From the NCBI GenBank assembly GCA_964605525.1, contig CAZSCV010000001.1, positions 18,424-82,423 on the forward strand: 64,000 nucleotides of DNA, read 5' to 3'. This DNA is from an uncultured Bdellovibrionales bacterium. GTDB taxonomy: Bacteria > Patescibacteriota > Minisyncoccia > Moranbacterales > UBA9337. Made by a program: the position numbers and the translations under genes. The notes beneath the pieces were generated by a model that was given only the letters and a program-made list of their open reading frames with translations, did not search any database and was not told where the DNA came from. Positions 29,999 to 53,724 of this stretch are shown here, in pieces. The number at the start of each line of letters is the position of its first letter. Position 1 is the first letter of the stretch.

Positions 29999-30027
29999 AA
30001 AACTATTTTTACTATTTACAAATACAT

Positions 30028-30079
30028 TATACGATACTATCGTATAATTTGTCAAATATCTATACGATAGTATCGTATA
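30028..30079 (-). promoter_or_regulatory. promoter with twin 19-bp palindromic operators (TATACGATA-c/g-TATCGTATA) upstream of AAA-ATPase 1
   Basis: Sense strand: TATACGATACTATCGTATA-gatat-TTGACA-aat-TATACGATAGTATCGTATAAT. One palindrome abuts the -35. The other fills the 18-nt spacer and supplies the TATAAT -10. Palindromes at 30028-30046 and 30061-30079. Confidence 0.5.
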
Positions 30080-30274: not shown

Positions 30275-31138
30275 ATGGAAAAATATCCCAAGATATTTGT
30301 TGTTGTGCTCAATTACAATGGAAAACGAACGCTAATGGAATGCTTGCGGTCGGTTTTTGACTGCGATTATTCCAATTTTGAAGTTGTTTTGGTGGATAAT
30401 AATTCAACTGACGGATCTTTTGAAACCGCCAAAACGAAATATCCAAAAATTCACTTCATTAAAAACAGTAAAAACATCGGCTTTGGAGCGGGAAATAATA
30501 TTGGAATCCGTTTTTCCTTAGAAAAAATGGCAGATTTCGTGTTCTTACTTAACAATGACGCTTACTTGGAAAAATCAACCCTATCCATATTAACAGAAGA
30601 AGCACAGAAAAATCCCTCTTCAGGCATTTTGAATCCACTCATCTTAAATAAAAGCGACGATAGCATTTGGTTTTCCGGAGGAAACATTGACTGGCTTAGG
30701 ATGCGCGCATACCATCTTCACGCACCACAGAAAGCGCTCGACACGTTCAAAACCGCATATGCCACCGGATGTGCCATGTTGGTAAAAAAAGACGTGTACA
30801 AGAAAATAGGACTTTTCGATGAAAATTTCTTTTTATATTATGAAGATGCTGATTTTTCCGTCCGCGCCAAAAGAAAAGGGTTTACTATATTAGTGGTTCC
30901 ACGATCCACAGTTTGGCACGATGAGCAAAGTACAAATAGCCCGCAAAAATTATACTGGCTAGTTTTATCTGGAATCTTATTTTTTAAAAAAAATATGCCC
31001 GCTTGTCTGCGTCCCTGGTTTTATTTTTATCTCTGGATAAGGAAAATGAAAAATATACTGGATTTGCACGAGAATAAAAACAATCAAAGCGCTCAAAAAA
31101 TAGCCCGGGCGTTTCTTGACGCAAAAAAATACCACTAA
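30275..31138 (+). CDS. family 2 glycosyltransferase
   Basis: IFVVVLNYNGKRTLMECLRSVFDCDYSNFEVVLVDNNSTDGS plus DxD-like LNNDAY are classical GT2 (GT-A) signatures. Confidence 0.8.
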   Translation: MEKYPKIFVVVLNYNGKRTLMECLRSVFDCDYSNFEVVLVDNNSTDGSFETAKTKYPKIHFIKNSKNIGFGAGNNIGIRFSLEKMADFVFLLNNDAYLEKSTLSILTEEAQKNPSSGILNPLILNKSDDSIWFSGGNIDWLRMRAYHLHAPQKALDTFKTAYATGCAMLVKKDVYKKIGLFDENFFLYYEDADFSVRAKRKGFTILVVPRSTVWHDEQSTNSPQKLYWLVLSGILFFKKNMPACLRPWFYFYLWIRKMKNILDLHENKNNQSAQKIARAFLDAKKYH

Positions 31139-31157
31139 TCGGCAATTTCTTATTTTT

Positions 31158-32429
31158 ATGTATTATTATCTACTTCTTTTTTTGGCACTTTATCTGCCAT
31201 TTCAAATTGCCCTCAATCCAACACAAGGAATTGATCTTGCTTCTGTAAGAATCCTTGCGTTGCTTATTTTCTTTCTCTGGCTTCTTCGGGGATTAAAAGA
31301 AAAAAAACTCGTATTAACATCTTCCTCTGTTTCCCCATTGATCATTTCTTTTCTCTTTTTTTGCTTATTTTCAACTTTTGCCTCCCAGAATATCCAATGG
31401 TCCGTCAGAAAATTATTATTTCTTCTTTCTTTTTTCCCTCTATTTTTTGTCATTTCCGCCTCTTTATGGAACAAAGAAAAAATAAAATTATTGTCAAATC
31501 TCCTTGTCCTAGGAGCATTTTTAACTGCAATCATTGGACTATTTCAATTTTCTCTTCAATTTATCTTAGGAATAGATACATCCCTATCTCTGTGGGAAAA
31601 AATAACCACACCATTGCTGGGAAACTCTTTTTCTCAATCAGTTTTCCAGCATAGCAGTTGGCTTGTTAATATCAACAATCGCACATTTTTTCGAGCCACA
31701 TCTCTTTTTCCCGATCCACATATGCTTTCTTTTTATTTAAATATGCTTTTCCCTTTATCCTTAGCGATTTACTTCTCTTCTTTTGAAAAAAAATATGCCT
31801 TTATTTCAGCAGTTATCCTTTTGGCAAGCCTGCTGACTTTTTCCCGCGGAGGATATTTTGGATTATTAGCTGGGACAATTTTCTTTTTTTCGTTTTTCCT
31901 GGCACGCAAAAAATATCAACTCAAAACCGCTTCAACTGTTGCGATTTTCTTCGCGAGCATCCTAGTTATTTTTTTCGTTTTTTTTACAACGCCCATAGGT
32001 CAGCGTTTTTTTTCCAGCTTTAATTCGCAGGAAGGTTCGAATTCAGAAAGAATCAAAATTTGGAACAAAACGATTGAAATTATTCAAGAAAATCCCCTCC
32101 TTGGGGTTGGCATTGGAAATTATCCTCTTTCAATTGAGCCTGCTTCCACCTATCGAGATCCCATCTATGCCCACAATACCTATCTTGATTTGGCAGTTGA
32201 AACTGGAATCATAACTTCCTTAATTTGGATTGCCATTCTCTTTTTATCTATTTTCAATTTAACACAAAACAAAACATCTCTCATTTTTCTGGGTTTTTCC
32301 AGTGGAATTGTCTCTTTTTCCGCTCACTCTTTTTTTGACACCGCTATTTTTTCCGTCCACGTACTTCCTCTTCTGATCATTTTTATCGCTTTTTCCGCCA
32401 TAAAAGAAAAATCATATGAATTGGTTTAA
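31158..32429 (+). CDS. O-antigen ligase/polymerase-like (Wzy_C) membrane protein 1
   Basis: 12 TM. YAHNTYLDLAVETGIITSLIWIAILF matches the Wzy_C motif (aHNsyL...E.G..G). ORF-track start 31116 overlaps the GT2 gene, so start placed at MYYYLLLF. Confidence 0.55.
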   Translation: MYYYLLLFLALYLPFQIALNPTQGIDLASVRILALLIFFLWLLRGLKEKKLVLTSSSVSPLIISFLFFCLFSTFASQNIQWSVRKLLFLLSFFPLFFVISASLWNKEKIKLLSNLLVLGAFLTAIIGLFQFSLQFILGIDTSLSLWEKITTPLLGNSFSQSVFQHSSWLVNINNRTFFRATSLFPDPHMLSFYLNMLFPLSLAIYFSSFEKKYAFISAVILLASLLTFSRGGYFGLLAGTIFFFSFFLARKKYQLKTASTVAIFFASILVIFFVFFTTPIGQRFFSSFNSQEGSNSERIKIWNKTIEIIQENPLLGVGIGNYPLSIEPASTYRDPIYAHNTYLDLAVETGIITSLIWIAILFLSIFNLTQNKTSLIFLGFSSGIVSFSAHSFFDTAIFSVHVLPLLIIFIAFSAIKEKSYELV

Positions 32430-33648
32430 TTGGCAACAAAAAGAAAACCTAGTTTCAATCCTTTGTCTTCATTCTCTTTATTTGGTTGTTTTTTTTGCTC
32501 CCGTATACTTAATCCGCCTATCAATCGCAAACATTCCGACTAATTTGCTGGAGATTTTTATTCTTATTTCCTTTTTTTTATGCATTTTCTCTTGTAAAAA
32601 AATTCAAATTAAAAAATTATATGCAATTAAAAAATTTCTTATTATCATTTTATTTCTTTTGCTTGGCTTAATCACCTCCTCTATTTTTGGAAAAAATCCG
32701 CTGACTGAGTTGGGAATAATAAAAAGCTGGTTCCTTTTCCCCTTGCTTTTTTCATTGCTTATTTTTGTAAAAATAGACACTTTTAAAAAAATTGAAGCTA
32801 TCTTAAAATACTATTATTTCTCCTCTTTGACATTGTCCCTGCTTGGAATTATATACATTGCAAGCGGAAAACTAACCTATGACGGGCGACTGAGCCTTTT
32901 TTATTTATCGCCCAATCATTTTTCAATGCTGCTAGCCCCGGCGGCTCTAATCGGCTTTTATTTCATATTTTCTACTCAAAAAACCGCCCTTTTTCAATTT
33001 TTTCAATTTATCATTCTTTTAAATTTTTATTTCACCTATTCATATTCCGCCTGGATAGCGGTTATTTTCAGCTTATTTCTGTTTCTACTTTTAACTAAAA
33101 GGGCTTTTTTTTCAAAACCAATTCACATTCTCGGCATCTTTATTGTTTCCTCTGTTTTATTGATTTCCCAGTTTCAAAATCCAAAAATTCAAAACATTTT
33201 CAATTCAAAAAATCATTCTTCCCTCGAGTCACGCCTGATCATCTGGAAAGTATCCAAAAAGATAATCTCCGAGAATTTCATTTGGGGAATTGGACCGGGA
33301 AATTTCCAAGAAACATACTTGTCTTGCCAAAAATATTTTCCGCCTTATCCGGAATGGGCAGTCCCGCAACCACATAATATCTTTCTTGCTTTTTGGCTTC
33401 AAACTGGAATTATTGGATTATTATCTTTCTTGTTGCTTATTTTTCTTTGGATGAAAGATCTTTTTTTCTTTACAATAAAAAACGACAGCACTCAATTTAA
33501 AAAAATGAGCGCCCTTCTTTTAGTTATTATGCTTTATATACTGCTTCACGGATTACTCGACACACCTTATTGGAAAAATGACCTTTCTCTTTACTTCTGG
33601 ATATTTTTTATTCTCGGTCTGATTTTAAAAGAAAACATTACAAATTAA
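32416..33648 (+). CDS. O-antigen ligase/polymerase-like (Wzy_C) membrane protein 2
   Basis: Polytopic. PQPHNIFLAFWLQTGIIGLLSFLLL Wzy_C-like motif. 14-nt overlap with the preceding paralog. Confidence 0.55.
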   Translation: MNWFNWQQKENLVSILCLHSLYLVVFFAPVYLIRLSIANIPTNLLEIFILISFFLCIFSCKKIQIKKLYAIKKFLIIILFLLLGLITSSIFGKNPLTELGIIKSWFLFPLLFSLLIFVKIDTFKKIEAILKYYYFSSLTLSLLGIIYIASGKLTYDGRLSLFYLSPNHFSMLLAPAALIGFYFIFSTQKTALFQFFQFIILLNFYFTYSYSAWIAVIFSLFLFLLLTKRAFFSKPIHILGIFIVSSVLLISQFQNPKIQNIFNSKNHSSLESRLIIWKVSKKIISENFIWGIGPGNFQETYLSCQKYFPPYPEWAVPQPHNIFLAFWLQTGIIGLLSFLLLIFLWMKDLFFFTIKNDSTQFKKMSALLLVIMLYILLHGLLDTPYWKNDLSLYFWIFFILGLILKENITN

Positions 33649-34780
33649 TTCTATATAGTTTTTCATCCAGTCTATTTGTAAAAAATAAAGCATCCTCAGA
33701 AGGGGATAAAAATAATCCCTTAGCATCATAATCACTTGTAATTTCGTTCAATTCAACTAACCGATTCCTTTCTCCGGTTTGAATATTTATTTTCCAGAAG
33801 ATATCTTTGGTAAAAAATTTTTCATTCTGATAATCATCCGGCATCATCATATCCGAGTCAATGGATGATGGGACTGCACAATAAATAAAAACATCATCCT
33901 TTGACCAGACACATTTTGAAACAAGTGTGGGCATTTTCAAATCTTCATAATTCTCCCCATTTCCATTTGAAAATCCCAATTCCATCTTTCCTGCAAATGA
34001 ACTGATTAAAACCTTATCCCCCCTATTAGACCACAAATAATCCGCCCCGTAGCGCTCAGTTTCTTTTCCAATATTCTCCGCCTCACTTACCACACCATCG
34101 ATAAAACTCACTGTTGAAGCTTTTTTCAATTGAGTTTTTTCATTTGCAAATGGAAAACTCCAAAAGAAAATATTATTCTTACCAACGGTTGCGTAAATTG
34201 ACACCATCTTCCAGGGAATATTGGCAATTTTTCTTGCATTTTTTCCATCAAAATCAGCAATCATCAAAATGCGCGATCCATCAGAAGGATTGAATTTTTT
34301 ATACAAAATACGCTCATCCGATCCTGACCAAACCGCATAATCCATATTCTCTTCGTATTTATGGACTGTTCCTGTTTTGCCGTCATACCAGGCATAATAT
34401 TTTTCTCCATTCTCTCCTGCCATCAAAATAATAGCTCTGGCTCTGCTTGGCGACCAAATAAAATCTTTAATTCCCGTAATCGGACTTCTATTTGAATTTT
34501 TTCTCAATTCGCCCGTGAAAGAAACCGAAAAAAGCTCCCCGGACGGAGAAAAATAATTAATCTTATTATTCTCGGAATCAACCTTAGGAAAAAGCATACC
34601 GCTATCGCCTAGAGAAATAATTTTTTTTACAGATTCCTCATTTTTAAAAACGCCCAATGTTTCATTCTCGTTGTTAATCGTATTTTCCGCTTTCTGGGAG
34701 CGAAAAGAAACATTATATGCCACAAAAAAAATCAACACGAAAATAAGCGCTACTAAGGAAAATATGAATAATTTTTTCAT
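33638..34780 (-). CDS. membrane-anchored TolB-like beta-propeller (PD40-repeat) protein
   Basis: N-terminal TM (LFIFSLVALIFVLIFFVAY). Repeated [FY]xWSxxxxxxhh blades (FIWSPSRARAIIL, YAVWSGSDERILY, YLWSNRGDKVLIS, CVWSKDDVFIYCA, LFLSPSEDALFFT). Confidence 0.5.
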   Translation of the reverse strand: MKKLFIFSLVALIFVLIFFVAYNVSFRSQKAENTINNENETLGVFKNEESVKKIISLGDSGMLFPKVDSENNKINYFSPSGELFSVSFTGELRKNSNRSPITGIKDFIWSPSRARAIILMAGENGEKYYAWYDGKTGTVHKYEENMDYAVWSGSDERILYKKFNPSDGSRILMIADFDGKNARKIANIPWKMVSIYATVGKNNIFFWSFPFANEKTQLKKASTVSFIDGVVSEAENIGKETERYGADYLWSNRGDKVLISSFAGKMELGFSNGNGENYEDLKMPTLVSKCVWSKDDVFIYCAVPSSIDSDMMMPDDYQNEKFFTKDIFWKINIQTGERNRLVELNEITSDYDAKGLFLSPSEDALFFTNRLDEKLYRINL

Positions 34781-34789
34781 TTTTTTTGT

Positions 34790-37609
34790 TTAATTTCTAT
34801 TTTTTTCACCAACTTCACTCGGGTAAAAACCAAATATTAAACTCGCGGTTGCAACCAAAACAAATATCGTCAAAATAATCCTAAGCAAGAAAAATATTTC
34901 TCCTGATATATTCGCGGAAAGAGTTGCCAAAATTTTTCCAATTCCGCTTTTATTAGCGAGTGGATTTCCAGCTTCGATTTCTATTTGCACCGATTCATTC
35001 ATTGTAATTTCAGTTGAATTTGATTGTTGAATTCCCCAAAACTTCTGAAGCGCTCTTCGTACGTCCGTTGATTGAACATATTCGGCTTCCAAGGAAACAT
35101 TATATACGCTCCCTATCGGTTTATCGACTGTAAAAAATATTCTTTCAGTTGAGACATCTGCTTGCTCAATGCCATCTATAAACCATTTTAGCGTTGAATC
35201 ACTCTCAATAAACTCCGGGTGAAACTCCCCGATAAGTGAAACTCCACTTCCAGGAGTACTTACAAACAAATTTTCGCTATAATTAACCAGGTCGTCTGAA
35301 GGAGTATTGCCCGTTATATCGACATAACTTCCCAAAACCTTTCTTTCAGATCCCGCTTCTGGAATAAGTTTCAAATATGGATTAACAATTTCAAATCTTC
35401 TCATAAGATTAATTCCCAAACTACCCTCTCTCGAACTTCCATTAATGTCATTTGCAGTCAAACTAAGATCAAATGTCTTTCCTGCTTCTCCGGCAACAGG
35501 AAAAAATATAACATTTGTTTGTCTTGTATCTTGACAACTTGCGCTCATATCTTGATTGCATTGCAAATCCGATCCATTTACCTCCCATGAATAATTCGAC
35601 AAATCATCCGACGCAATTCTCGCGCCGATAATTTGACCGGCAGCCACATAACAAGTTTTATCTTCCGCACATATTTCATCATTCAAGGACATTTCTAGTG
35701 TATTTGGGTCTAAATTAACATTATATAAGCTAATGCGGTCAGAACTTGAAGTAATTCGAATGATCACATCTGAACGTCCTGCCCTAGTTAAGCCAGAATC
35801 AAAAACCTCCTCAACTTCAATATAAATTCTCAGATACCCAACACCTTCATTATTAAATATTGCATCATAATTATTACTATTATTTGCAACATTTAAATTA
35901 AATTTAAGTTCAGAGATATTATTACCCTCAAGCAAACTCATTTCCGTTTCTTGACGAAAACTCGATAAAGCGGAAATACTTTCCCAATCATCCAAATCCA
36001 AACTCATTCTTTTACTTGGAGTATTAAGTCTTTTCACATCCCATCTATAATAAGTTTGACTAGTATCATGATCTCCATTCATAGAAACAGCTTGAACGAA
36101 AACCATATCCCCCATTTTCCCCCCACTGGCGTCATTATTAGGAGAGTCTGGTCCATATTCCAATGAAACTTCCAAATTAGTTGGCTGTCCGCCCTCAACA
36201 GGATCGACTAAATTATCCTCGAGACAATCATTTATATCCATAGTTGCAGTAGGAATAGTTACGGGATACCCCTTGATGATTTTTTGATAACTTCCTATAT
36301 TTTGTACGTCGCATTTATTTTTTGGAAGCGCCCACATAATCATCATTGAAGCATTATCATGTTTAGTTGGAATAATAGATTTTCCTTCTACTACAACACC
36401 CACCTTATCCCCAGGCATATAGTTCCATGTAAATCCATCAACTCCCAGTCCAGCAATTGTTGCTTCATCGTTCTGCCCCCTATCTGCAGTATCAGGATCC
36501 CTAGGATTTGTTCCCCAAAATTCTTCCTCAGTTGTACCAAAACTATTATTGCCCGTTATATTACTATCGGAATTTGGAAATAAATGTTCACAAGCACTCG
36601 CTATTGTTGAGCTAGCTAATTGATCCGCCCTACAATAAGTTATCGGCGTTCCTGAAGCGGAACAAGATAAAGATCCGCCCCCAAGATCAGCGCAACTCGG
36701 ATCTAAAAATGTATCGGAAATGCAATAAGGCTGTGTTCCCAATGGACAACTCGCAGTACAAATATCTTCCCCGGGATTACTCGGATCAGAATAGCATTGC
36801 GAAAGATTGCAATAAACATCGAACCCCGAATCAGTACAAGTATCATACTCAGTAAATAATCCACTAATTATGCCTCCCGAAAATTCTCCGTCACTGGAAC
36901 ACGTTTCAACATAATCTTTAACACACGTCACATTTTGAGAAGGACAACTGCTAAGCGTATTTGGCACTATTGCTCCGGTAAGAAAACTGGTACTTTCATC
37001 ATTCCCTCCGCTATCTGCTAATTCATAATTATCTCCATTTGAAAAACTATGCACATAGCAATATGCCGGGGATAGATTATTATCCCCGCCAAAACGAGCG
37101 CGGTACCCATCATCATCCCACGATCCTTGCGTATTTATTCGATCATCAAATCCATTTTGAGCAATAATCCTACTTGCCTCAACTTTCCAATCTTCTTCAT
37201 TCACCCTATTGTCATCATTAACATCACAAGATGATTGATAGTCGGAACTTCCTCGTGAAGCAATTTCACATCCTTCGTGTTTTATATACCAAGTAAAATA
37301 TAATGATTCCTTTTGATTACTAAAATAAGATGGCAATGCTTTGGCAATTATCTTCTCCCCAGGCTTAGGATTGGATGGTGAAAATGATAACATAACTTCT
37401 GGCGGAGTTGTCTTTCCGTCCGCGACATTCAAGCTTTCTCCTAAACTTTGAACGGAAGCACTGTTTATATGATATCTTTGCTCTAAATCAGTCGCAACCT
37501 CATTGGCTGATGGAATATGCAGAGCCATAACAGGGTACGAACCAAAAAGAAAAAGTTCAACGAATATCCATAATAATAGAACAATTTTATTTTTTCTATG
37601 TTTTTTCAT
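34790..37609 (-). CDS. large Cys-rich secreted protein with C-terminal membrane anchor (939 aa)
   Basis: Signal/TM at N-terminus (IVLLLWIFVELFLFGSYPVMALHIPSA). More than 50 cysteines in the central region (CxxxC-rich modules). C-terminal TM FFLLRIILTIFVLVATASLIFGFY and short cytoplasmic tail. Confidence 0.5.
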   Translation of the reverse strand: MKKHRKNKIVLLLWIFVELFLFGSYPVMALHIPSANEVATDLEQRYHINSASVQSLGESLNVADGKTTPPEVMLSFSPSNPKPGEKIIAKALPSYFSNQKESLYFTWYIKHEGCEIASRGSSDYQSSCDVNDDNRVNEEDWKVEASRIIAQNGFDDRINTQGSWDDDGYRARFGGDNNLSPAYCYVHSFSNGDNYELADSGGNDESTSFLTGAIVPNTLSSCPSQNVTCVKDYVETCSSDGEFSGGIISGLFTEYDTCTDSGFDVYCNLSQCYSDPSNPGEDICTASCPLGTQPYCISDTFLDPSCADLGGGSLSCSASGTPITYCRADQLASSTIASACEHLFPNSDSNITGNNSFGTTEEEFWGTNPRDPDTADRGQNDEATIAGLGVDGFTWNYMPGDKVGVVVEGKSIIPTKHDNASMMIMWALPKNKCDVQNIGSYQKIIKGYPVTIPTATMDINDCLEDNLVDPVEGGQPTNLEVSLEYGPDSPNNDASGGKMGDMVFVQAVSMNGDHDTSQTYYRWDVKRLNTPSKRMSLDLDDWESISALSSFRQETEMSLLEGNNISELKFNLNVANNSNNYDAIFNNEGVGYLRIYIEVEEVFDSGLTRAGRSDVIIRITSSSDRISLYNVNLDPNTLEMSLNDEICAEDKTCYVAAGQIIGARIASDDLSNYSWEVNGSDLQCNQDMSASCQDTRQTNVIFFPVAGEAGKTFDLSLTANDINGSSREGSLGINLMRRFEIVNPYLKLIPEAGSERKVLGSYVDITGNTPSDDLVNYSENLFVSTPGSGVSLIGEFHPEFIESDSTLKWFIDGIEQADVSTERIFFTVDKPIGSVYNVSLEAEYVQSTDVRRALQKFWGIQQSNSTEITMNESVQIEIEAGNPLANKSGIGKILATLSANISGEIFFLLRIILTIFVLVATASLIFGFYPSEVGEKNRN

Positions 37610-37650
37610 ATTTTTAAAATTTCTTTAAATAGTTTATTTTAAATATTTAT

Positions 37651-38322
37651 CTATATTTTTGTTATTTTAAGGAAGATTATATCCAATAAAATAATGGCTA
37701 TCCAACCAAAAATAAATGAATACCAAATTGCACGGCTTTTATAGGCAATCCATCCGCCCAATAAGTTTATCACCATATAAGGGAAAAAATTCCAATTCAA
37801 ATTATCTATTAAAGCCAGTAAAATTGTAAAAATTGCAAATTGCAAAAAAACTGCACCTTTTTTAAAATATTTTTCAAAAAAATTCAAAATCCAGCCATGA
37901 AAAAAGAACTCGTACAAAAATAAAAAAAATCCAACCAGAAAAACCTCGTAAATCACAAATAATCCAAAATTATTGCTTACTGATTGTGGAATTCGATACT
38001 CATTGGAAAAATTTGAATATTTATACGCCACCAACATAATTAAAGAAAACACAAACAAAAAAATAACTATCAAATAAATTCCAGTATTCATTCTTCCTGA
38101 TTGGATTCCATATTCTTTCATTGATTCGCCTAACACTATTTTAATATATAGCCACGGAACAATCAAAAAAAATGAAAATCCGACAATAAAATCTTGCAAG
38201 GCATTATTTCTGGGAAAAATCCCAACCAAAATCAAACAAATTATTGCAACAGCGGAAGTTATCCAAATTTCTTTTTTTATTAACATTTTTTTATTAAATA
38301 CTAACTTAAAATTATTTCTCAC
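37651..38322 (-). CDS. polytopic membrane protein (possible CPBP/Abi-like)
   Basis: 223 aa, 6 TM. YEFFFHGWILNFF weakly resembles the EExxxR/FxxxH motifs of CAAX-protease-like proteins. Low certainty. Confidence 0.35.
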   Translation of the reverse strand: MRNNFKLVFNKKMLIKKEIWITSAVAIICLILVGIFPRNNALQDFIVGFSFFLIVPWLYIKIVLGESMKEYGIQSGRMNTGIYLIVIFLFVFSLIMLVAYKYSNFSNEYRIPQSVSNNFGLFVIYEVFLVGFFLFLYEFFFHGWILNFFEKYFKKGAVFLQFAIFTILLALIDNLNWNFFPYMVINLLGGWIAYKSRAIWYSFIFGWIAIILLDIIFLKITKI

Positions 38323-38614
38323 CGGAAAGTTTGAATTCCGCTTTTCTTTTCATATGAGCAAATACCACTATTGCGCAATTACTTGGCACCATTCCCAGGA
38401 AAAAAAAATCTATTACTTTCGCTATGACGAAAGTCATCAGAGGGCTTGTTTTTGGCACATAAGACCTCTGCCAAATTCCAAAAATGAACCCGGCCACAGC
38501 TTCGGTTACGATATTTAAAAAAGGTACCAGCCCAAGACCGTCAAATATTATCGCCAAAACAAGCATACCAACCGGAAAACTCATGGATTTTTGATTCGCC
38601 TTATTTCCGCTCAT
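38312..38614 (-). CDS. small 3-TM membrane protein
   Basis: 100 aa (VGMLVLAIIFDGLGLVPFLNIV, AVAGFIFGIW, FVIAKVIDFFFLGMV). 11-nt overlap with the downstream gene, co-operonic with the VirB4-like ATPase. Confidence 0.35.
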   Translation of the reverse strand: MSGNKANQKSMSFPVGMLVLAIIFDGLGLVPFLNIVTEAVAGFIFGIWQRSYVPKTSPLMTFVIAKVIDFFFLGMVPSNCAIVVFAHMKRKAEFKLSGEK

Positions 38615-38666
38615 ATTTTTTTCTTGCCCGTCTTAATGCCTGCCATTTTTTCAAAATTAAACCGCT

Positions 38667-40466
38667 CTATTCCCCTGCCAATTCTCTTTTTGCATTTTCA
38701 ATTTCCAGCAACTGCCTCGGATCGGAGGTTATTATTTGATCTTCGCTATATGATGCAATCACTCGAATCGCCACATGCTTATTTCCAGCAAAAAATATCC
38801 CTTCTCCCACATTGCTCTCCAAAAGCAAAAATTTTTCCTGTTCAGTCAGATAAAACGTTTCCGCGATAGCATCGATAGATGCTGGCGACTGCTTCAGGAG
38901 AAGCTGAATAGATGAGTTGGTAATTATCGGCTTTCCATATTGGGAAGAAATAAAATCATTAATATCCTGTGTAATTGTTGTAAGGCCGGTATAATATTTT
39001 CGACATCTCTTGGCAATTCCAAAAAGAAAAGAAGCGGCATCCTCATTTTTCATCATTATCCAGGCTTCATCCACAACTACTATTCTTTTCTTAAGATTGC
39101 TTCGCATCTCATTCCAAATAAAATGAAGTACGATATACATTGCAATTGGTCGCAATTCCTCTTCAAGGTCTCTAATATTGAAAACCACCAACTGATTGTC
39201 GATTTTAACACTGGTCGGCTTATTTAAAAATCCGGCAAAAATACCTTCCGTATACTTTTCCATTCTTGTTGCTAATGATTCGGAACCCTCCATATTTTGC
39301 AAAACCGCATACAAATCAGACAATACGGGAAAATCTCCAGGCGCCAAACTATTAAAATCACTTTGCGGAGAAATATCTCTAATGGCATAGGATTCTCGAA
39401 TCCCCCTTTCAAGGATTGAATCTTCTTCCGGAGTGATATCCCGCATCATAAGATGCATAAGTCCCATTAAATTAGCCACATTACTTCTCATTGCTTCCTC
39501 GGGATCATCATCTTCACCAAGTTTCGGTATGTCAAACGGATTCAAATGCGACTGCGAATTGAGAGATATCGGAACAAACGATCCGCCCACTGTTTCGCAT
39601 AAATGTTTATACTCATTTTCCGGATCAATCACGATCACGTTTGTGTCCATCATCAATGAACGCAAAATTTCCAATTTTATGGTATAACTTTTTCCCGCTC
39701 CGGACTTAGCAAATACTGTCATATTAGCATTTTCCATTTCAAACCGGTCAAAAAGTATCAAACTGTTATTATGCCGATTTATTCCATAGAGAATTCCCTT
39801 ATTTGATGTAAGATCAGATGAAACAAAAGGGAAACTTGTTGAAAGCGGAGATGTATTCAAATTGTTGGCGACATCCAGCTCATCATTAGCCAATGGAATT
39901 GTTGATGAAATGCCCTGCTCCATACGGAAAACCGCCGGCTTGATATACACCAACTGCGCCTCTAAGATAGCCTCGATACTTTCACCTATTTTATTCACCT
40001 CTTCAACGCTTGAACCATAAACAGTCATATATAAACTGAACCTGAAAAATTTTTCAGTTCCTTCTTGCAGTTTATTCCGCAAATCCTCGATATTATTAAG
40101 CGCCGATTCCAATATCGGATCTCTGATTTTTCCCTTTCCGGCTTCAATTGAAATTTCAGACATTACCTGGGTTGCTTTTTTTCTTAGGTTTTTCAAAACA
40201 TCTGCCGTATCCATTGGATGGATGAAAATTGCCGTATCCATTGAAAAATCCGCATTGATAATTGGCGAAAACCAATTCGTGCTCAAAAATTTGGGAAAAG
40301 CAAAAACAAACAAGGTTTTCACATGCACCCCGCCTATTTCGATATGATTTGAATCAACCTTAAGCGCTGATGGTGCAATCAAATCCTTCACAGTCGCCAA
40401 TCCCTCCTGATAAAGATATTCTTCATCCGGTTCGCTGTTTTTCTTTTTTGTAAAACTTCCAAACAT
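38667..40466 (-). CDS. VirB4/TrbE-like secretion ATPase, C-terminal P-loop NTPase module
   Basis: Walker A FAKSGAGKSYTIK. Walker B RIVVVDEAWIMM. Arginine-finger region. About 600 aa VirB4/DUF87-type architecture. ATG lies 5 nt after the stop of the preceding ORF with no RBS. Confidence 0.6.
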   Translation of the reverse strand: MFGSFTKKKNSEPDEEYLYQEGLATVKDLIAPSALKVDSNHIEIGGVHVKTLFVFAFPKFLSTNWFSPIINADFSMDTAIFIHPMDTADVLKNLRKKATQVMSEISIEAGKGKIRDPILESALNNIEDLRNKLQEGTEKFFRFSLYMTVYGSSVEEVNKIGESIEAILEAQLVYIKPAVFRMEQGISSTIPLANDELDVANNLNTSPLSTSFPFVSSDLTSNKGILYGINRHNNSLILFDRFEMENANMTVFAKSGAGKSYTIKLEILRSLMMDTNVIVIDPENEYKHLCETVGGSFVPISLNSQSHLNPFDIPKLGEDDDPEEAMRSNVANLMGLMHLMMRDITPEEDSILERGIRESYAIRDISPQSDFNSLAPGDFPVLSDLYAVLQNMEGSESLATRMEKYTEGIFAGFLNKPTSVKIDNQLVVFNIRDLEEELRPIAMYIVLHFIWNEMRSNLKKRIVVVDEAWIMMKNEDAASFLFGIAKRCRKYYTGLTTITQDINDFISSQYGKPIITNSSIQLLLKQSPASIDAIAETFYLTEQEKFLLLESNVGEGIFFAGNKHVAIRVIASYSEDQIITSDPRQLLEIENAKRELAGE

Positions 40467-40471
40467 ATTTT

Positions 40472-41152
40472 TTATTCCAATTCTATTTTCTCAACATTCT
40501 TTATTATAGCATTAACCGTCAAACTTGGATTATATGAGTTATAATACAGCTCTATCAATTCTTCAGTTTCCAGTGGCGTCATCTTCAGTCCCGCTCCTCC
40601 AAGCGCAGCCTCCACTTGTTTTGCTCTTTGCCACAACTGACTCACATGGGCCTCAAAAAACTCCTTTCTTACCATCACTTGTTGTTTTGGGTTAAAAATA
40701 TCAATTAATTTTTCAAAAAATCCTTCGCTCTTGCTTTCTACTGGAGAAAAAGGAATCACTACATAAAAGAACTTAGACATAATTTGCGTCATATCAGTAA
40801 GTCTTTTGATAAAATTTCCGTATTCAGCTATTTGCATTCGAAGCAATTCATTTTTTTGCACTTTTTCTTTTTCCGCTATAATTTTCAAATAAGGATTTAT
40901 ATTAAACCTTCTCGAACTGATAACGATTTGCACCGGAAAATCCAAAGAATTTAAAAAATTTTGATACTGGCTAATAATCGCGTCCTGCTCTTCGGTCGAT
41001 TTGAGATCAAAGTTTATGGAAGAAACAAGAAAAACCATTCGCAATGACCCATTTTTCATTACAACCACACCATTTCGTATCTCTTCGATATCGACATATT
41101 TTTGCGAACTGTTTTCGCTTCTGCTTTTTTTATTTTCGTGCAATAGTTCCAT
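40472..41152 (-). CDS. VirB4-like N-terminal domain encoded as a separate ORF (split VirB4)
   Basis: RNGVVVMKNGSLRMVFLVSSINFDLKSTEEQDAIISQYQNFLNSL resembles the VirB4 N-terminal domain motif (...tkdGsl...f.l.g.d...s.ee.......l...l). Stop TAA at 40472-40474 followed by aaaat and ATG of the ATPase module. Confidence 0.4.
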   Translation of the reverse strand: MELLHENKKSRSENSSQKYVDIEEIRNGVVVMKNGSLRMVFLVSSINFDLKSTEEQDAIISQYQNFLNSLDFPVQIVISSRRFNINPYLKIIAEKEKVQKNELLRMQIAEYGNFIKRLTDMTQIMSKFFYVVIPFSPVESKSEGFFEKLIDIFNPKQQVMVRKEFFEAHVSQLWQRAKQVEAALGGAGLKMTPLETEELIELYYNSYNPSLTVNAIIKNVEKIELE

Positions 41153-41215
41153 TTTTTGTTTGCTATTTTTAATTTCTTTCCAATATTACCAACATCGCTC
41201 TCATTTGATCTTTTA

Positions 41216-41611
41216 CTATTTTCTATCAAGAATACTGGCCAATTCCCTTATTCTATCCTGGTTTATTTCCTTTTTTTCCGGCGCTGGTCCGCTTTTGGAA
41301 ACTTCTTTTGGCGCGCTCTTTTGCGCCTTCCGCCCTTCTTTCTTCCAAACATACACTTTCGGGCGGAAAAAAAACATTCCGGCGGAAAAAATAAACGTTA
41401 TCAATGATTGATTATATGGCCGATAAAAGGCCAGTGCCAAAAAAAACAATGCAAGCGGAATAGCAATTGCAAAAAAAACTCCTTGCGTCACAACATTCCA
41501 CAAAATCAGCAAAATAACTCCCAAAATAAACATCCAAAGCAGCGCCTTTCCCGTAAAAGGGCCAACAATTTTATCTTCAACATCAATAAATTGGGGTGTT
41601 CCAAATAACAT
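41216..41611 (-). CDS. VirB3/PrgI-like small membrane protein
   Basis: 131 aa. Two TM helices (ALLWMFILGVILLILWNVV, VFFAIAIPLALFFLALAF) after a short N-terminal segment FIDVEDKIVGPFTGKA. Positioned immediately upstream of the VirB4 genes as in Gram-positive-type T4SS. Confidence 0.35.
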   Translation of the reverse strand: MLFGTPQFIDVEDKIVGPFTGKALLWMFILGVILLILWNVVTQGVFFAIAIPLALFFLALAFYRPYNQSLITFIFSAGMFFFRPKVYVWKKEGRKAQKSAPKEVSKSGPAPEKKEINQDRIRELASILDRK

Positions 41612-42907
41612 CTACTTTTTCAGATCAATTACATTTGACGGGGTTTCAAAATCCCGCTTCTTATCCTTATTTGAAAACAAGCTCAAGGGCTTGATTATAT
41701 AAGGATTTTCTTCTTCATCGTCCTCTTTTTTTTGCTGTCGCTTTCTTTCATCCTCTTTTTGGGCCGCCTCTTTTCTCTCTCTTTCTATTTTTCCTCTTTC
41801 TATTTCTTCAGCTAATTTTTTTTCCGCCTCCTCCTTCTCCTTTCGCTCTTTCCTTTTTTCAATATCTTGCTGCTCAGCCTTTTTCTGTTTTTCAATTTCA
41901 AGAATTTTTTCCGCTTGTTTCTCTTTTTCTCTTTTAGCCATCTCGGCTTCTACTCCCAATTGATTATTTTTTTCTTTTTTATCCATTATTGAATATCCCC
42001 CGGAAACAACGGCTTCTTCTTGAATTTTTCGATTCAATTTGGCCAGCCCCGCCGGTTCTTCTTCCACTTTCTTGACCGGCTTTATTCTTTCCGCATTGCC
42101 GGAAGACTCTTCTTTTTTAACTGCTGGCTTTGAAACCGGAAAGAATTTGTGAAAATTGCTTTTCAGACTACCTTCTTTTATTGGCATTTTTCTGTCTTTG
42201 TATTCAGGAAAAATCACTTTTTTTTCTTCCTGATCAATATCCATCAATTCCCCGTCTTCCAGTGATTTTATAATTGCCATCATTTTTTGGCGTTCTTCGG
42301 CGCTCAAATTTTTGGCATTTTTTCCGTGGTACAAATAATCCCCTCTTTGCATCAAATCGTGCTTTCCCGCACCCATTTCATGATAATAATCATCAATCCA
42401 GTTTTTTATTGAGGGACGAATCGCATCAGAAAACCCTCTTCCTTTCAATGAAATCCCCGAGAGAGCCTGCTCGCCAATTTCCGGAATCTTCTTCATCACA
42501 TCTTCAATATTCATTTTCACGATATTTTTATTTGCTCCTAAACTTTCATCATTAATAATTGTTCGCAAAACCTCTTGCGTTATTTTTTTTGCATTTTCTT
42601 CATCTATTCCTGTTTCTTTTATTAAAACGCTTGCAAATTCATCCTTTTTCACCTCGCCAAAATAATAACTGCGCACCAAACGGGCAATTGAAGCAGTTTT
42701 TTGCAAATCAAATCCAAAACCTTGTCCAATCTTAAAAATCTTTTCCCCGGTTACATAAGACGCCAGCTTATCTTTTACGTTCTCTGGTAATTTCAAAAAT
42801 TTTTCTTGCCTCTCAATTATTTGCTCATCAGTTTCATCTTCATTTTTCAGAGTAACTGAAACCAATTGAGGAATAGTATTTCTATTTTTTATTAGCTTAT
42901 CCTCCAT
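41612..42907 (-). CDS. cytoplasmic protein with conserved N-domain and long Lys/Glu-rich coiled-coil tail
   Basis: 431 aa. C-terminal EKEKQAEKILEIEKQKKAEQQDIEKRKERKEKEEAEKKLAEEIERGKIERERKEAAQKEDERKRQQKK low-complexity coiled coil. No TM. Within the T4SS-like operon. Confidence 0.45.
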   Translation of the reverse strand: MEDKLIKNRNTIPQLVSVTLKNEDETDEQIIERQEKFLKLPENVKDKLASYVTGEKIFKIGQGFGFDLQKTASIARLVRSYYFGEVKKDEFASVLIKETGIDEENAKKITQEVLRTIINDESLGANKNIVKMNIEDVMKKIPEIGEQALSGISLKGRGFSDAIRPSIKNWIDDYYHEMGAGKHDLMQRGDYLYHGKNAKNLSAEERQKMMAIIKSLEDGELMDIDQEEKKVIFPEYKDRKMPIKEGSLKSNFHKFFPVSKPAVKKEESSGNAERIKPVKKVEEEPAGLAKLNRKIQEEAVVSGGYSIMDKKEKNNQLGVEAEMAKREKEKQAEKILEIEKQKKAEQQDIEKRKERKEKEEAEKKLAEEIERGKIERERKEAAQKEDERKRQQKKEDDEEENPYIIKPLSLFSNKDKKRDFETPSNVIDLKK

Positions 42908-42944
42908 TTTTTTTCCAAATTATTATACTTTTCTTTACTTACAC

Positions 42945-44870
42945 CTACCACATTCTATTATTTTTTCCGGCTTTCAAATTCGTTCCACTCATTCCTTTTC
43001 GTATATTTGCTTGCCCCTCATCCCCATGTTCAAGATATGCCGCCATAGCTCCTGTTGTAATATCAGCATCACTTAAAACATTTTCCAAATCCAACTTCTT
43101 CCAATCATCTGTTTTTATATTCATAAATTCTTTTTGTGCAACATTTTTTCTTTCCGAAGAAATTGCAACCAAGTTAGATGGAGCAATTCCCTTATTCTTT
43201 ATATTTTCTCCTGCTTTTTGATTAATAATCAAATCAATTCTCTTTTCCTTAACCTTCGAATCAAGAATTTCTTTCAGAGCATTATCTCCCTTAACTGCGA
43301 CAGTTGCAGTATCAAACTGCATTTGAGCTGTAATTTTATTTCCTTTTTCATCAGTATAATCCCTAAATCCTTTATTTTCAGCCAATTCCATTGCAGCTGC
43401 TTTTTTCTCAATACTACTTCCAGTTTGAAGACTTTTCCTAACTTCACTATCGGAAACTTTATCTTCCTTCCACTCTTTTCGTAAAGTAGCAACTTTCTTT
43501 CTTTCATAATCTCTTTGAGCTTCATCACCCGCACTCCATTTACCTTTTGACATCCTTGCTCCCATTTTCTCCTCCCTTAATGCTCTTGCTTCAGATCCAC
43601 CATATTTAAATTTTCCAATACCTAATTGTCTTCCTGCAATATTTCCTGTTTTCTTAAACTCATCTACAGCCTTACTTGCTCCACCTGAAATACCAGTCGC
43701 GCCCAATCCAAATGCCATCGCTTTTCCTGGTGCTTTCCTAAATTTTGTTCCTATATCTTTTGCAACCGATGTTATTTTTCCTGCGCCGTAAATATTCATT
43801 TTTGTGGCAACTAGCATTCCCGACCAAAGAATTATCATTGGAATAAAAAAGAAAGAAGCTGTTGCAAGTAAGTCGCCATTTTCAGCTGGAATTTTGTAAT
43901 TAGCCGCCAACGTATTTATACTGTCCGCGCCAATAAGCCTTGTGTTTCCAAGTTCATCCATAAGCCGCAAGGATAAAAGAAACATAAACATCATAATTGG
44001 CCCAACAAGAGCATACTTAAACAAATAATCCCACCATTCTCCCATTTTTGAAAAACTGGGAAAAATCGGACCCACAAAACCCAGTGGGGAAAAAATAATT
44101 ATCAAAGCTAGGACAATTATTCGCACTAGGAAAATTCCCGCCATAGCAATAAGGGTTATCGCCATTAGGAATGAAAAAACAATAAGAAGAAGTAATTTTA
44201 CTGTCAAATCAGAATCGGAATTAATCGAAGAGGAACCCTCTGGAATAACCAAATTAACTAACTTTGAATTATCAAGAAAAGCGGCGGAAATACTATCACT
44301 TGAATAATTATACCCTGGAAAAGCTTGTTCGATAAAAAAATACATCGTTACATTTGTTGTATCAATAATAAAACGTGAAACCGGAAAACTAAAATTCACC
44401 AAAAGCGCCATCAAGACCACCATAAGTAAAATATTTTTTTTCAAAAGATGATATTTATCAATTTGAAAAACTGTTGAAAAGGCACTAAAAAGAAGCACTA
44501 AAATGAAACTCAGATTCATAAAATCCCGCACAATCAACCAACCGGAATAAACTCCATCACTGCGAATTATTCCACTTATATTAGTCGGATTAATAGACCA
44601 ATCAAACACAAGCCCTGCCATCCAAATAAAAAAAGTAAGCAGTAGCCAAGCTCCATACAAAAGATAATTAATTCCCAATATAAATCCATTTTGCAAACTA
44701 TCCAAAGTTGAATCTACTGGGTTTAAAAAATCAAATGCGGCATTGGCTTGATTTAAGAAACCTCCACTTGCTTCTATGGAAAAATTAAAAACAAAAAAGA
44801 ATATCACAAAGACCAATAAAATTTTGGTAATATTTTTTTTATTTAAATTGTTTTTTATTTTTTGTTTCAT
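42945..44870 (-). CDS. VirB6/TrbL-like polytopic membrane protein with C-terminal hydrophilic domain
   Basis: 641 aa. N-terminal signal/TM, at least 7 further TM helices in the first 400 aa, then a charged soluble tail. Size and topology fit VirB6-type channel components. Call is by architecture only. Confidence 0.4.
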   Translation of the reverse strand: MKQKIKNNLNKKNITKILLVFVIFFFVFNFSIEASGGFLNQANAAFDFLNPVDSTLDSLQNGFILGINYLLYGAWLLLTFFIWMAGLVFDWSINPTNISGIIRSDGVYSGWLIVRDFMNLSFILVLLFSAFSTVFQIDKYHLLKKNILLMVVLMALLVNFSFPVSRFIIDTTNVTMYFFIEQAFPGYNYSSDSISAAFLDNSKLVNLVIPEGSSSINSDSDLTVKLLLLIVFSFLMAITLIAMAGIFLVRIIVLALIIIFSPLGFVGPIFPSFSKMGEWWDYLFKYALVGPIMMFMFLLSLRLMDELGNTRLIGADSINTLAANYKIPAENGDLLATASFFFIPMIILWSGMLVATKMNIYGAGKITSVAKDIGTKFRKAPGKAMAFGLGATGISGGASKAVDEFKKTGNIAGRQLGIGKFKYGGSEARALREEKMGARMSKGKWSAGDEAQRDYERKKVATLRKEWKEDKVSDSEVRKSLQTGSSIEKKAAAMELAENKGFRDYTDEKGNKITAQMQFDTATVAVKGDNALKEILDSKVKEKRIDLIINQKAGENIKNKGIAPSNLVAISSERKNVAQKEFMNIKTDDWKKLDLENVLSDADITTGAMAAYLEHGDEGQANIRKGMSGTNLKAGKNNRMW

Positions 44871-45144
44871 CTCTATTACTGTCCGTGGAATAATATTTCA
44901 CCTAAAACAAAAGTTTCTTTTTCTACTCAAATATTATATCAGATTTTTAAAAATAAACAAAATAACTAAAAAGATAAAAAGATGCTTTTTTTGAAAACTC
45001 TTTTTATTTTTTTCAATTTGAAGGAGTAGTGGTTATTATATACTGTATATATATATAATTTATTAATATATATTATTAAGAAGAGATAAATTGTTGATAA
45101 ATAAAAATAAGACAATAAATAAAAGAAAAAACAGTAGAATAATT

Positions 45145-45311
45145 TGTGGATAAGAAGTAAGAAAAAGAAGGTGTAAAATCTGGGGAAAAGGGTGGATAAA
45201 ATTAAATAAGGTGGGAAAAATAAAAATATGTAAAAATATCAACAGAAAGAGCTGGGAGATATGGACAGGGATATTAACAGAAAAATGGCGGTTTTAAACA
45301 GGTTATCCACA
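45145..45311. promoter_or_regulatory. AT-rich intergenic region with two perfect, oppositely oriented DnaA boxes and one near-perfect box, upstream of the T4SS-like operon
   Basis: TGTGGATAA at 45145-45153 (perfect). GGTGGATAA at 45191-45199. TTATCCACA at 45303-45311 (perfect). Surrounded by TATATATATATAAT-type tracts (about 45040-45080). Confidence 0.45.
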
Positions 45312-45321
45312 AATAAGTGAA

Positions 45322-45360
45322 TAAAAAATACTCACCACTTATTTGGGTGAGTATTTTTTA
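45322..45360. terminator. bidirectional rho-independent terminator downstream of the LysM-CHAP gene
   Basis: AAAAATACTCACC acttatttg GGTGAGTATTTTTT. Perfect 12-bp stem flanked by A- and T-runs. Confidence 0.6.
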
Positions 45361-45383
45361 AGGAAAATAAAGTTATTTTTTTA

Positions 45384-46631
45384 TTAATAAATATAACCTT
45401 TAATAACTCTGCTGGCGGTAGATATCGTTCGGGTACTTTTCTTTCCCCAGCCTTTATAATTCATCTCGGATACAGTAATTGTGTTTTTACTAACACTTTC
45501 AACAATAGCCACATGACCCCACCAAGATTCTGAGGAAACCATAATAGAGCCTTTTTGTGGGGTTTTTCCGGTTTTATATCCCATAATTTTAGCTTGATAT
45601 AGCCAAGTTCCAGCATTTCCACCCCAAGGAATAAAGCGTTTTTGGGCTACATACCAAGTACAATAGCCATATGGGAAGATGTGTCCAGCTCCTGCTTTTC
45701 CTTTAAGTTCCTTTAAACCTGAAGTTGTTGGTGTTCCTCCTGAGGGAGTGGCATATTCTCTGCGGTCAATAATAGAAGAGGTATTTTGATTTTGTGTGGG
45801 AATTTCTTTTTGTCCTCCGGGAATAATGATTTCTTGTTTTTCCTTTAACTCCCCATTGGCGGGTAAATCATTGAAAGAAATAATTTTACTTTTATCAGCC
45901 TCATATTCTTTAGCGATTGAGTCAATAGTATCCCCATTTTTCACAACATAAGTTAACCCGGCTACTGGAAGAATAAAGATTTGGTCGCCAGGCATAATAG
46001 AATCAATATCTTCAATGTCATTAGCCCATAAAATGGTGTTAATGGTAATATTGTTTGCTTTAGCGATAGCGCCAAGATTTTCACCTTCTTTAACTGTGTG
46101 GATTTTAACCCCCCCGTTTTCTTCTGGATCTTTTAATGTCGGACTGGAATCAGCTAAAAGCACCTGATTTTGTGAATCTTTTAATATTTCATTCTCTTCT
46201 TCTTTTGGATTTGGATTTACTGAAGTGCTAGCCATTGCGAGGGGAACTAAAACTAGGTCATTCTTTTGCATAACCTGTCCGCTAAAAAAAGCGTTTTGGG
46301 AATTGTTAACCTCGTCATTTTTCCAATAGCCAAACAAAAAACCGCTCGACTTTCCTTCGGCTGCCAAATTAGTAGAGGCTACTAAGATAGCGCTAGAAAT
46401 TACAACAACCAGCGCTGAGTAGTTTCTGAGCATATGAAGAACCGGAATGGTTCGCCTTTGCTTGATAAAGGTGGTGATGTTTTTTTGTCTGCGGTAAAGG
46501 CTTTTCTGTATTTTTTTTGTTTCGAGTTTTTTGAAAACATTGGCAATAAACAAAAGTTGTTTACTAATAGGTTTAATTCTTTCTGTTGGTTTTAATGGTA
46601 GATTCATAAAATATCGGTAAAACCGATCCAA
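45384..46631 (-). CDS. membrane-anchored cell-wall hydrolase with two LysM domains and a C-terminal CHAP domain
   Basis: TM near N-terminus (ALVVVISSAILVAST). LysM repeats TVKEGENLGAIAKANNITINTILWAN and YVVKNGDTIDSIAKEYEADKSKIISFN. CHAP motifs CTWYVAQKR...GNAGTW...GHVAIVESV with a Cys...His dyad. Confidence 0.7.
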   Translation of the reverse strand: MDRFYRYFMNLPLKPTERIKPISKQLLFIANVFKKLETKKIQKSLYRRQKNITTFIKQRRTIPVLHMLRNYSALVVVISSAILVASTNLAAEGKSSGFLFGYWKNDEVNNSQNAFFSGQVMQKNDLVLVPLAMASTSVNPNPKEEENEILKDSQNQVLLADSSPTLKDPEENGGVKIHTVKEGENLGAIAKANNITINTILWANDIEDIDSIMPGDQIFILPVAGLTYVVKNGDTIDSIAKEYEADKSKIISFNDLPANGELKEKQEIIIPGGQKEIPTQNQNTSSIIDRREYATPSGGTPTTSGLKELKGKAGAGHIFPYGYCTWYVAQKRFIPWGGNAGTWLYQAKIMGYKTGKTPQKGSIMVSSESWWGHVAIVESVSKNTITVSEMNYKGWGKKSTRTISTASRVIKGYIY

Positions 46632-53187: not shown

Positions 53188-53340
53188 GTTATATTATAAA
53201 ATAAAAGTAATCTTTTGTCAAATAAAGTTAGGAAGTAAGCCATATTTTGTGGGTATTTTTTTGTCTGAATTTATTAAAAAATAAGCATAGATAGTGTGTT
53301 ATATAATTAATGACTTCTAAATCATTGATTGGGATATATA

Positions 53341-53358
53341 TTGTTCCACGTGGAACAA
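53341..53358. promoter_or_regulatory. parS-like palindrome 1 (TTGTTCCACGTGGAACAA; core TGTTCCACGTGGAACA)
   Basis: Perfect 18-bp palindrome whose 16-bp core equals the perfect-palindrome form of the ParB-binding parS consensus tGTTNCACGTGAAACa. Confidence 0.55.
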
Positions 53359-53511
53359 TTATAAGATGATTTTTATTTTTTTATTTTTTTATTTTTTTTA
53401 TATAATCTGAAAGAGTCAAATGAGTATTTTTATGAATAAATTCAAGGAATGTGGAGTTATTTCTGAAATTTAACAGTATTGTAATGATTTGATGTATATT
53501 TTTTTACACAA

Positions 53512-53529
53512 TTGTTCCATGTGGAACAA
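53512..53529. promoter_or_regulatory. parS-like palindrome 2 (variant TTGTTCCATGTGGAACAA)
   Basis: One C-to-T change in the CACGTG core. Flanks extend the dyad (ACACAATTGTTCC...GGAACAATTGTGT). Confidence 0.45.
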
Positions 53530-53706: not shown

Positions 53707-53724
53707 TTGTTCCACGTGGAACAA
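53707..53724. promoter_or_regulatory. parS-like palindrome 3
   Basis: TGTAATTGTTCCACGTGGAACAATTACA. Core perfect, flanking dyad extended with compensatory changes. Confidence 0.55.

Follow-up and report, generated by a model that had tools for sequence, protein, structure and literature searches.

A locus at positions 33,638-46,631, on the minus strand of the 64-kb stretch of contig CAZSCV010000001.1 that was analysed (hereafter the window), very probably encodes a chromosomal, vertically inherited type IV secretion system (T4SS) of the Patescibacteria clade, belonging to Candidatus Moranbacteria (Parcubacteria group) and derived from the MPF-FATA conjugation machinery of monoderm bacteria. 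The locus is made up of ten head-to-tail open reading frames (ORFs), all on that strand and all intact, and the coordinates given to it in an initial annotation hold. Systems of this kind have already been published (PMC10633639, PMC12102498), and the function proposed in the initial annotation, a non-conjugative T4SS through which an episymbiont with a small genome interacts with its host, matches the published picture; the chromosomal context, the synteny across the order, the Patescibacteria-type relatives and the Xer type of the neighbouring recombinase speak for it. Our additions are modest, namely a set of conserved accessory genes and a promoter adjacent to a candidate origin.

The ATPase of the system is encoded by two consecutive genes. 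The product of 38667-40466, the C-terminal two thirds of a VirB4 with its P-loop domain, reached 369 bits with NF045971 (curated cutoff 325), which places it in the CD1110 family of VirB4 proteins, in agreement with the VirB4-like ATPase first proposed. It also matched P-loop_TraG (E 3.7e-28), and both the Walker A (AKSGAGKS) and the Walker B (IVVVDE) motifs are intact. The gene before it, at 40472-41152, encodes the VirB4 N-terminal domain as a protein of its own: in NCBIfam it matched TrsD and, in several models of VirB4, the N-terminal positions, the precomputed Pfam assignment is PF26593 (TraC-like), and jointly the two proteins tile a full VirB4 model. The initial annotation had read them as one VirB4-like ATPase in two pieces. 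A frameshifted or broken VirB4 is ruled out, as the ORFs lie in different frames, VirB4 begins at a clean ATG 5 nt past the upstream stop, and TrsD is an ORF of its own in 73 of 74 relatives; being conserved among relatives, the split is a natural one. At the remaining locus, L073 of a Liptonbacteria genome (9143-11764), TrsD and VirB4 apparently form a single 873-aa ORF.

Relatives were collected by scanning the VirB4 protein against one genome per species and keeping the 80 best loci; some of the automatic names of these genomes are plainly wrong. All 80 are found in Patescibacteria-type metagenome-assembled genomes (MAGs), and those with names belong to Candidatus Moranbacteria/Moraniibacteriota, Parcubacteria, Paceibacterota and other Patescibacteria. 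The best matches were a Moraniibacteriota MAG (97% identity) and Moranbacteria GW2011_GWE2_35_2 (89%), whereas among plasmids the highest identities, to VirB4s of Firmicutes and Actinobacteria, were 27-34%. The difference between 52-97% identity to Patescibacteria loci and at most 34% to plasmids fits membership of the Patescibacteria clade, but is a comparison of identities and not a phylogeny.

Genes that scored weakly by themselves were judged through family alignments of the homologous ORFs from these 80 loci. The 641-aa product of 42945-44870 had no Pfam match alone, but 12 of the 42 members of its family matched Pfam TrbL/VirB6 (best 6.8e-10), and the top PDB match of the family profile was TrwI, the VirB6 of R388, in its membrane helices (E 6.5e-4). 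The hydropathy peaks correspond to about six or seven transmembrane segments, followed by a long hydrophilic C-terminal extension, as in an "extended VirB6". Similarly, the 131-aa protein with two transmembrane segments encoded at 41216-41611 matched PrgI only at E 0.0017, whereas all 35 members of its family matched PrgI (best 3.4e-12) and 14 of them TcpE; it is a PrgI/VirB3/TcpE-like protein. Between these two genes, at 41612-42907, lies one for a soluble protein of 431 aa, rich in lysine and glutamate (KE-rich) and lacking any transmembrane segment. A structure model (mean confidence score, pLDDT, 76) has a well-predicted helical N-terminal domain, joined by a disordered linker to a single long helix; the conserved domain comprises residues 1-235 and the KE-rich single long helix residues 316-400. 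Its family has no known relatives, and its position is always between VirB6 and PrgI. The VirB6-like, VirB3-like and KE-rich proteins of the initial annotation are thus all recovered.

Four more genes follow VirB4, and the description of the system as minimal is misleading, since its core is accompanied by these four and the KE-rich helical protein, five extra conserved genes. The first (38312-38614) encodes a small hydrophobic membrane protein of 100 aa, short and diverged for its family; in Moranbacteria this family always comes after VirB4, and its alignment shows a shared aspartate and proline. Neither the protein nor its family has a consistent Pfam or NCBIfam match, and T4SS_pilin was matched by one of 31 family members (E 0.06). 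With no family match and no signal peptide, a VirB2 pilin is ruled out, and a basic loop in the family points to cytoplasmic ends. At one related locus (L003, 4883-5314) a paralogue of this protein is encoded directly upstream of VirB6.

The second gene (37651-38322) encodes a CPBP/Rce1-like protein of 223 aa with six transmembrane segments, or probably of 211 aa, from the ATG at 38286, the start that gene callers use. Its score with the Pfam Rce1-like family, 22.0 bits, lies under the cutoff of 22.4, and the same family was matched by 19 of 31 family members (best 2.5e-8). Of the CPBP/Rce1 motifs EExxxR, FxxxH and HxxxN only E-F-F-F-R/H-G is kept. A conserved glutamine occupies the place where the first CPBP histidine is expected and no histidine column exists among the 31 sequences, so that the canonical catalytic set is missing. 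The gene is adjacent to that of the surface protein described next, and each is found in every Moranbacteria-type locus that could be judged (35/35 and 28/28), which is why a sorting protease for the anchor of that protein was considered. This idea is weakened by the missing catalytic histidine and by the anchor, which has no basic tail.

The third gene (34790-37609) encodes a Cys-rich surface protein of 939 aa with 22 cysteines, many of them invariant. In the AlphaFold model (pLDDT 81) an N-terminal helix is followed by a long run of beta-sandwiches and a C-terminal membrane helix; the protein has a signal-like N-terminus, mostly tandem immunoglobulin-like (Ig-like) domains, and a C-terminal transmembrane anchor, and we refer to it as the Ig-array protein. 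An exhaustive search with it gave 512 representative clusters. It has 308 homologues, none of which is functionally named, and those named by lineage are all from Moranbacteria. The initial annotation, which had recognised it as a Cys-rich anchored exoprotein, saw in it a possible cargo or adhesin of the T4SS. With a signal-like N-terminus and an anchor of its own, it has the look of a surface or structural protein and not of cargo. The last operon gene (33638-34780) encodes an N-terminally anchored beta-propeller of 380 aa, whose family profile matches TolB structures (E 8e-8), as had been proposed; the two small membrane proteins that had been noted are the 100-aa and the CPBP-like proteins.

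The arrangement of the genes is retained throughout the order, in dozens of genomes, which is the outcome of the synteny comparison that the initial annotation had suggested. Counted as profile matches in loci with enough flanking sequence, the helical protein between VirB6 and PrgI is present in 33/33 Moranbacteria-type loci, the small membrane protein in 38/41, the CPBP-like protein in 35/35, the Ig-array protein in 28/28 and the propeller in 23/23. Among more distant loci the helical protein was found in 10 of 27 and the propeller in 19 of 25. The accessory proteins are only 25-45% identical across loci. Furthermore, in the distant loci the propeller gene is co-oriented with VirB4, 1.4-5.9 kb downstream of it, while the other flanks differ (dnaA instead of Wzy), and the upstream flank of the cluster is variable where the downstream block is constant.

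The first gene of the train, at 45384-46631, encodes a peptidoglycan hydrolase that is membrane-anchored at its N-terminus and in which Pfam recognised two LysM domains and a CHAP domain (E 9e-19 for LysM and 3e-17 for CHAP), the architecture originally described; it is a candidate for a VirB1-like enzyme that opens the wall. It had been counted as part of a single ten-gene train, and this probably holds for the other nine genes but not for the hydrolase. A perfect sigma-70 consensus (TTGACA-17-TATAAT) lies upstream of it at 46706-46678, a hairpin with a T-run lies 30 nt past its stop (45323-45354), and an AT-rich non-coding gap of 513 nt (44871-45383, 26% G+C) separates it from VirB6. In the closest relative compensatory changes preserve the hairpin, and another hairpin stands at this place in the next one. 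Within the gap, 62 nt ahead of the VirB6 ATG, there is a conserved extended -10 region, TGATATAAT, at 44933-44941, which is likely to be the promoter of the operon. Terminator and promoter were identified by aligning close relatives; an automatic promoter/terminator scan gave counts near the shuffle expectation and was uninformative. From VirB6 to the propeller the intergenic gaps are 0-63 nt, those from VirB4 onward being 52, 25, 41 and 9 nt, with no convincing terminator. It is likely that the operon comprises these nine genes and that the hydrolase is a separate neighbouring unit, since the latter has a promoter, a terminator and the 513-nt gap of its own.

No Shine-Dalgarno-like motifs were visible at the nine operon starts, and in eight of them five or more consecutive A's stand at the ATG or 1-2 bases from it. 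A 59-aa ORF in the 513-nt gap was rejected as a hidden gene; it is of low complexity, and it resembles ORFs in the two closest relatives (L001, L054) because the DNA itself is conserved. The CHAP gene occupies this position in only nine related loci. In 15 or 16 other Moranbacteria loci its place is taken by genes for two secreted proteins, each about 350 aa long, and at L006, L008, L011, L014, L016, L018, L024, L026, L028, L031-L035 and L042 these two, which are co-oriented, replace the pair formed by the hydrolase and an upstream Xer recombinase. The first of them has thrombospondin-type-3-like Asp-rich repeats, and neither has a homologue in the window.

The same 513-nt gap contains four DnaA-box-like sites (45092, 45145, 45191 and 45303), two of them perfect and two with one mismatch, while the whole window has five perfect boxes. 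The minimum of the cumulative GC skew, at about 45.0 kb, coincides with the gap; the skew is negative over 1-44 kb whatever the gene strand and positive past 50 kb. The cluster of boxes is common only to the two closest relatives. Box content and skew make the gap (44871-45383), 25 kb from dnaA, a candidate for oriC or for a DnaA-controlled promoter.

The window carries dnaA (18238-19644), dnaN, DciA, rnpA, yidC and a small rpmH ORF, and is thus a segment of the chromosome around the replication-initiation genes. We scanned 59 ORFs of the window, among them every non-nested ORF of at least 90 aa, against Pfam and/or NCBIfam. None of the 59 matched a relaxase family, and none matched a coupling-protein family (VirD4/TcpA-type) above threshold; the sub-threshold matches to T4SS-DNA_transf and TraD (E 0.038 and 0.046) were both to VirB4 itself. 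Nor were pilin-like or further small membrane ORFs found in the intergenic gaps. The absence of relaxase, VirD4 and recognisable pilin that the initial annotation had reported therefore holds for the whole 64 kb. No train protein had a Pfam or NCBIfam match to a VirB8-like protein (NTF2-fold, of the PrgL/TraM/TcpC type), and the models of the 939-aa and 431-aa proteins, the only two unknowns that were folded, are Ig-like and helical, not NTF2-like. Searches of PDB sequences with the two uncharacterised train proteins came back empty.

A tyrosine recombinase gene lies divergently, 235 nt upstream of the CHAP gene. Its product is of the XerC/D/XerA type (242 bits, cutoff 220), a score that rules out the identity of an integrase of an integrative and conjugative element (ICE). 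Its identity among relatives, 62-97%, is above that of the T4SS accessory genes, which fits a housekeeping enzyme.

This agrees well with what has been described for Patescibacteria. Quinonero-Coronel et al. (2025) found VirB4 in 2,417 of 3,035 Patescibacteria genomes surveyed, almost all of them in a single clade within MPF-FATA; this clade is monophyletic and rarely exchanged between classes (PMC12102498). In that survey the commonest VirB4 partner is TrsD, with PrgI/VirB3, VirB6 and VirB1-like hydrolases also present; relaxases are rare in the clusters, coupling proteins are usually elsewhere, VirB2-like pilin genes near virB4 are frequent but not universal, and the clusters are often close to dnaA, dnaN and rnpA (PMC12102498). 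The Moranbacteria locus likewise has VirB4 with a separate TrsD, PrgI/VirB3, VirB6 and a wall hydrolase nearby, is chromosomal and near dnaA, dnaN and rnpA, and has neither a relaxase nor a linked coupling protein. In Southlakia epibionticum, Wang et al. (2023) found a T4SS cluster (tags 0006-0019) that is indispensable for growth as an epibiont; it resembles Gram-positive conjugative systems and has no recognisable relaxase or coupling proteins (PMC10633639). In contrast to the Saccharibacterial locus with its six essential pilins, no VirB2-like pilin array was found at the Moranbacteria locus. A propeller, a CPBP-like protein, a Cys-rich Ig-array protein and a KE-rich helical protein all go without mention in the main text of the 2025 survey (PMC12102498), and we found no paper linking Moranbacteria with type IV secretion.

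The order VirB6, VirB3, (TrsD), VirB4, hydrolase is that of MPF-FATA systems (TrsC-TrsD-TrsE-TrsG of pGO1/pSK41, PrgH-I-J-K of pCF10, and the CD1110 family of Clostridioides transposons), which also share the CHAP-type hydrolase and the lack of outer-membrane components. Unlike them, the present locus has an extra gene between VirB6 and VirB3, is chromosomal and vertically inherited, and was found to have no relaxase, type IV coupling protein, VirB8-like protein or PrgB-type adhesin. A relative in Firmicutes is found on the megaplasmid of Pontibacillus sp. ALD_SL1 (NZ_CP062975.1, 7474-17027; locus L081), where the same core order, with a 779-aa VirB6-like, a 116-aa PrgI-like, a 274-aa TrsD-like and a 621-aa VirB4 protein, is followed by a large peptidoglycan peptidase. 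The VirB6-like profile matches the 779-aa protein (1.5e-18), and TrsD is 30% identical to the 274-aa protein. The Pontibacillus cluster differs in lacking the helical, small membrane, CPBP-like and Ig-array proteins, in having a single match to the propeller profile (E 4e-07), on the opposite strand, and in having an annotated Mbov_0395 pilin-like gene upstream. The megaplasmid is typed non-mobilizable and the cluster adjoins flagellar genes; it is possibly a non-conjugative relative.

Known T4SS biology suggests how the parts could work together. VirB4, its N-terminal domain supplied in trans by TrsD, would dock on a membrane platform of VirB3 and VirB6, and the VirB4/TrsD motor would power the passage of macromolecules through it. 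The hydrolase would open the wall locally, and the anchored propeller and the Ig-array protein would make up an extracellular section, spanning the wall and contacting the host cell in place of the missing VirB8 and pilus. Such a machine would operate at the interface between epibiont and host and not in conjugation.

Relatives of T4SSs that serve in DNA uptake and have neither relaxase nor VirD4 are known in Helicobacter ComB and the archaeal Ced system. The VirB4 described here matches CedB weakly (E 3.6e-15, 56 bits against a cutoff of 700) and is not a Ced member, and ComB includes outer-membrane parts (VirB7-10), of which the Moranbacteria locus has none. As to the direction of transport, export, contact and import are indistinguishable from the sequence. 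A perspective calls the role of the T4SS completely unknown, with effector delivery and nucleotide uptake as guesses (PMC11665869), and a 2025 review lists the Patescibacteria T4SSs as newcomers of unknown function (PMC12857230). Uptake of host macromolecules has our slight and weak preference, a little short of an even chance, on the grounds that no coupling protein is linked, that the only one tested is reported to be dispensable (PMC12102498), and that this is a monoderm with Sec-exported surface proteins. The export of effectors or toxins into the host bacterium, the function preferred in the initial annotation, is somewhat less probable, at about one chance in three. It has been speculated upon (PMC11665869, PMC10633639) and the operon encodes surface proteins suited to contact, but the coupling protein, which is the normal recruiter of cytoplasmic substrates, is not found in the window, the sole coupling protein tested is reported to have been dispensable (PMC12102498), no operon gene has a recognisable toxin domain, and the Cys-rich protein carries export and anchor signals of its own.

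It is also conceivable, though rather improbable, that only the five genes from VirB6 to VirB4 make up the machine and that the four downstream are an unrelated envelope module, for instance one linked to Wzy or glycosyltransferase genes. The downstream four have no homologue in known T4SSs, the Firmicute cluster lacks three of them and has its propeller match on the opposite strand, TolB-like propellers are common envelope proteins, and the synteny in Moranbacteria takes in the convergent Wzy pair. However, the short gaps of 9-52 nt from VirB4 onward without a convincing terminator, the constancy of the downstream block next to a varying upstream flank, and the propeller, co-oriented after VirB4 in 19/25 distant loci with different flanks, argue for one unit. 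Some observations do weigh against the main reading. As the conserved synteny in Moranbacteria reaches the convergent Wzy genes too, part of it may be plain collinearity. The hydrolase is linked to the cluster in only nine loci, and the roles suggested for the five non-core genes come only from synteny, spacing and topology. Furthermore, VirD4-like genes are common in other parts of Patescibacteria genomes (PMC12102498); a 64-kb window that lacks one does not mean a genome that lacks one, and such a gene could sit beyond the window here too. A decayed Firmicute-type ICE that has lost its relaxase and coupling protein and kept the neighbouring tyrosine recombinase as integrase is very improbable, for although VirB4 falls in the CD1110 conjugal-transfer family, the recombinase lies divergently 235 nt from the CHAP gene, and the closest relatives outside the candidate phyla radiation lie on plasmids that are for the most part typed conjugative, the recombinase is of the XerC/D/XerA type and better conserved than the T4SS accessory genes, the ORFs are intact with their ATPase motifs preserved, dozens of genomes share the order and content at identities of 25-45%, no compositional break is seen, and the clade is monophyletic and rarely exchanged between classes (PMC12102498).

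The surroundings of the locus show some further features. Two tandem Wzy_C (O-antigen-ligase-like) genes at 31116-33648 converge on the end of the operon, with an overlap of 11 nt into the propeller gene; about 25 Moranbacteria loci have the pair at this place. The initial annotation had placed giant exoproteins, in the plural, in the train, which contains only one large exoprotein. The 2275-aa giant (9826-16653), with repeated fibronectin-III and purple-acid-phosphatase-N domains, belongs to the dnaA-dnaN train, where dnaA, dnaN and DciA are followed on the minus strand (7400-16653) by the giant, a response-regulator receiver gene and a gene for a 664-aa lamin-tail/PKD protein. The 64 kb encode seven TrmB-type winged-helix regulators, paralogues with lengths of about 240-275 aa (4386-5135, 24716-25453, 25480-26250, 27833-28612, 50270-50995, 58360-59130 and 60128-60952), an unusual density for one family, and there are two genes for ATPases with AAA_14 and DUF4143 domains (28814-30055 and 56495-57625). 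A region of 1.6 kb without a notable ORF (53188-54794) contains genes for tRNA-Ala (54498) and tRNA-Arg (54680), its only Rfam matches being tRNAs, and two more perfect DnaA boxes (54236 and 54289).

The T4SS of Patescibacteria is the first reported to be essential for the growth of its own bacterium, and its substrate and direction are a central question for how ultrasmall epibionts feed on their hosts. The Moranbacteria locus does not represent a new kind of system, but it is a clean and complete example from this group, and its propeller, Ig-array, CPBP-like and helical proteins make a short list of conserved, uncharacterised candidates for partners of the T4SS. As a tentative proposal, which we regard as unlikely rather than likely, the T4SS core in Paceibacteria-type Patescibacteria would have gained an extracellular apparatus of its own, whose expression in this genus is possibly tied to the origin or to DnaA. 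The apparatus may consist of the anchored TolB-like propeller throughout the class, joined in Moranbacteria by the disulfide-rich Ig-array protein, the histidine-less CPBP-like protein and the small membrane protein, and it would take the place of VirB8, pilus and adhesin and serve as a contact or a conduit to the host.

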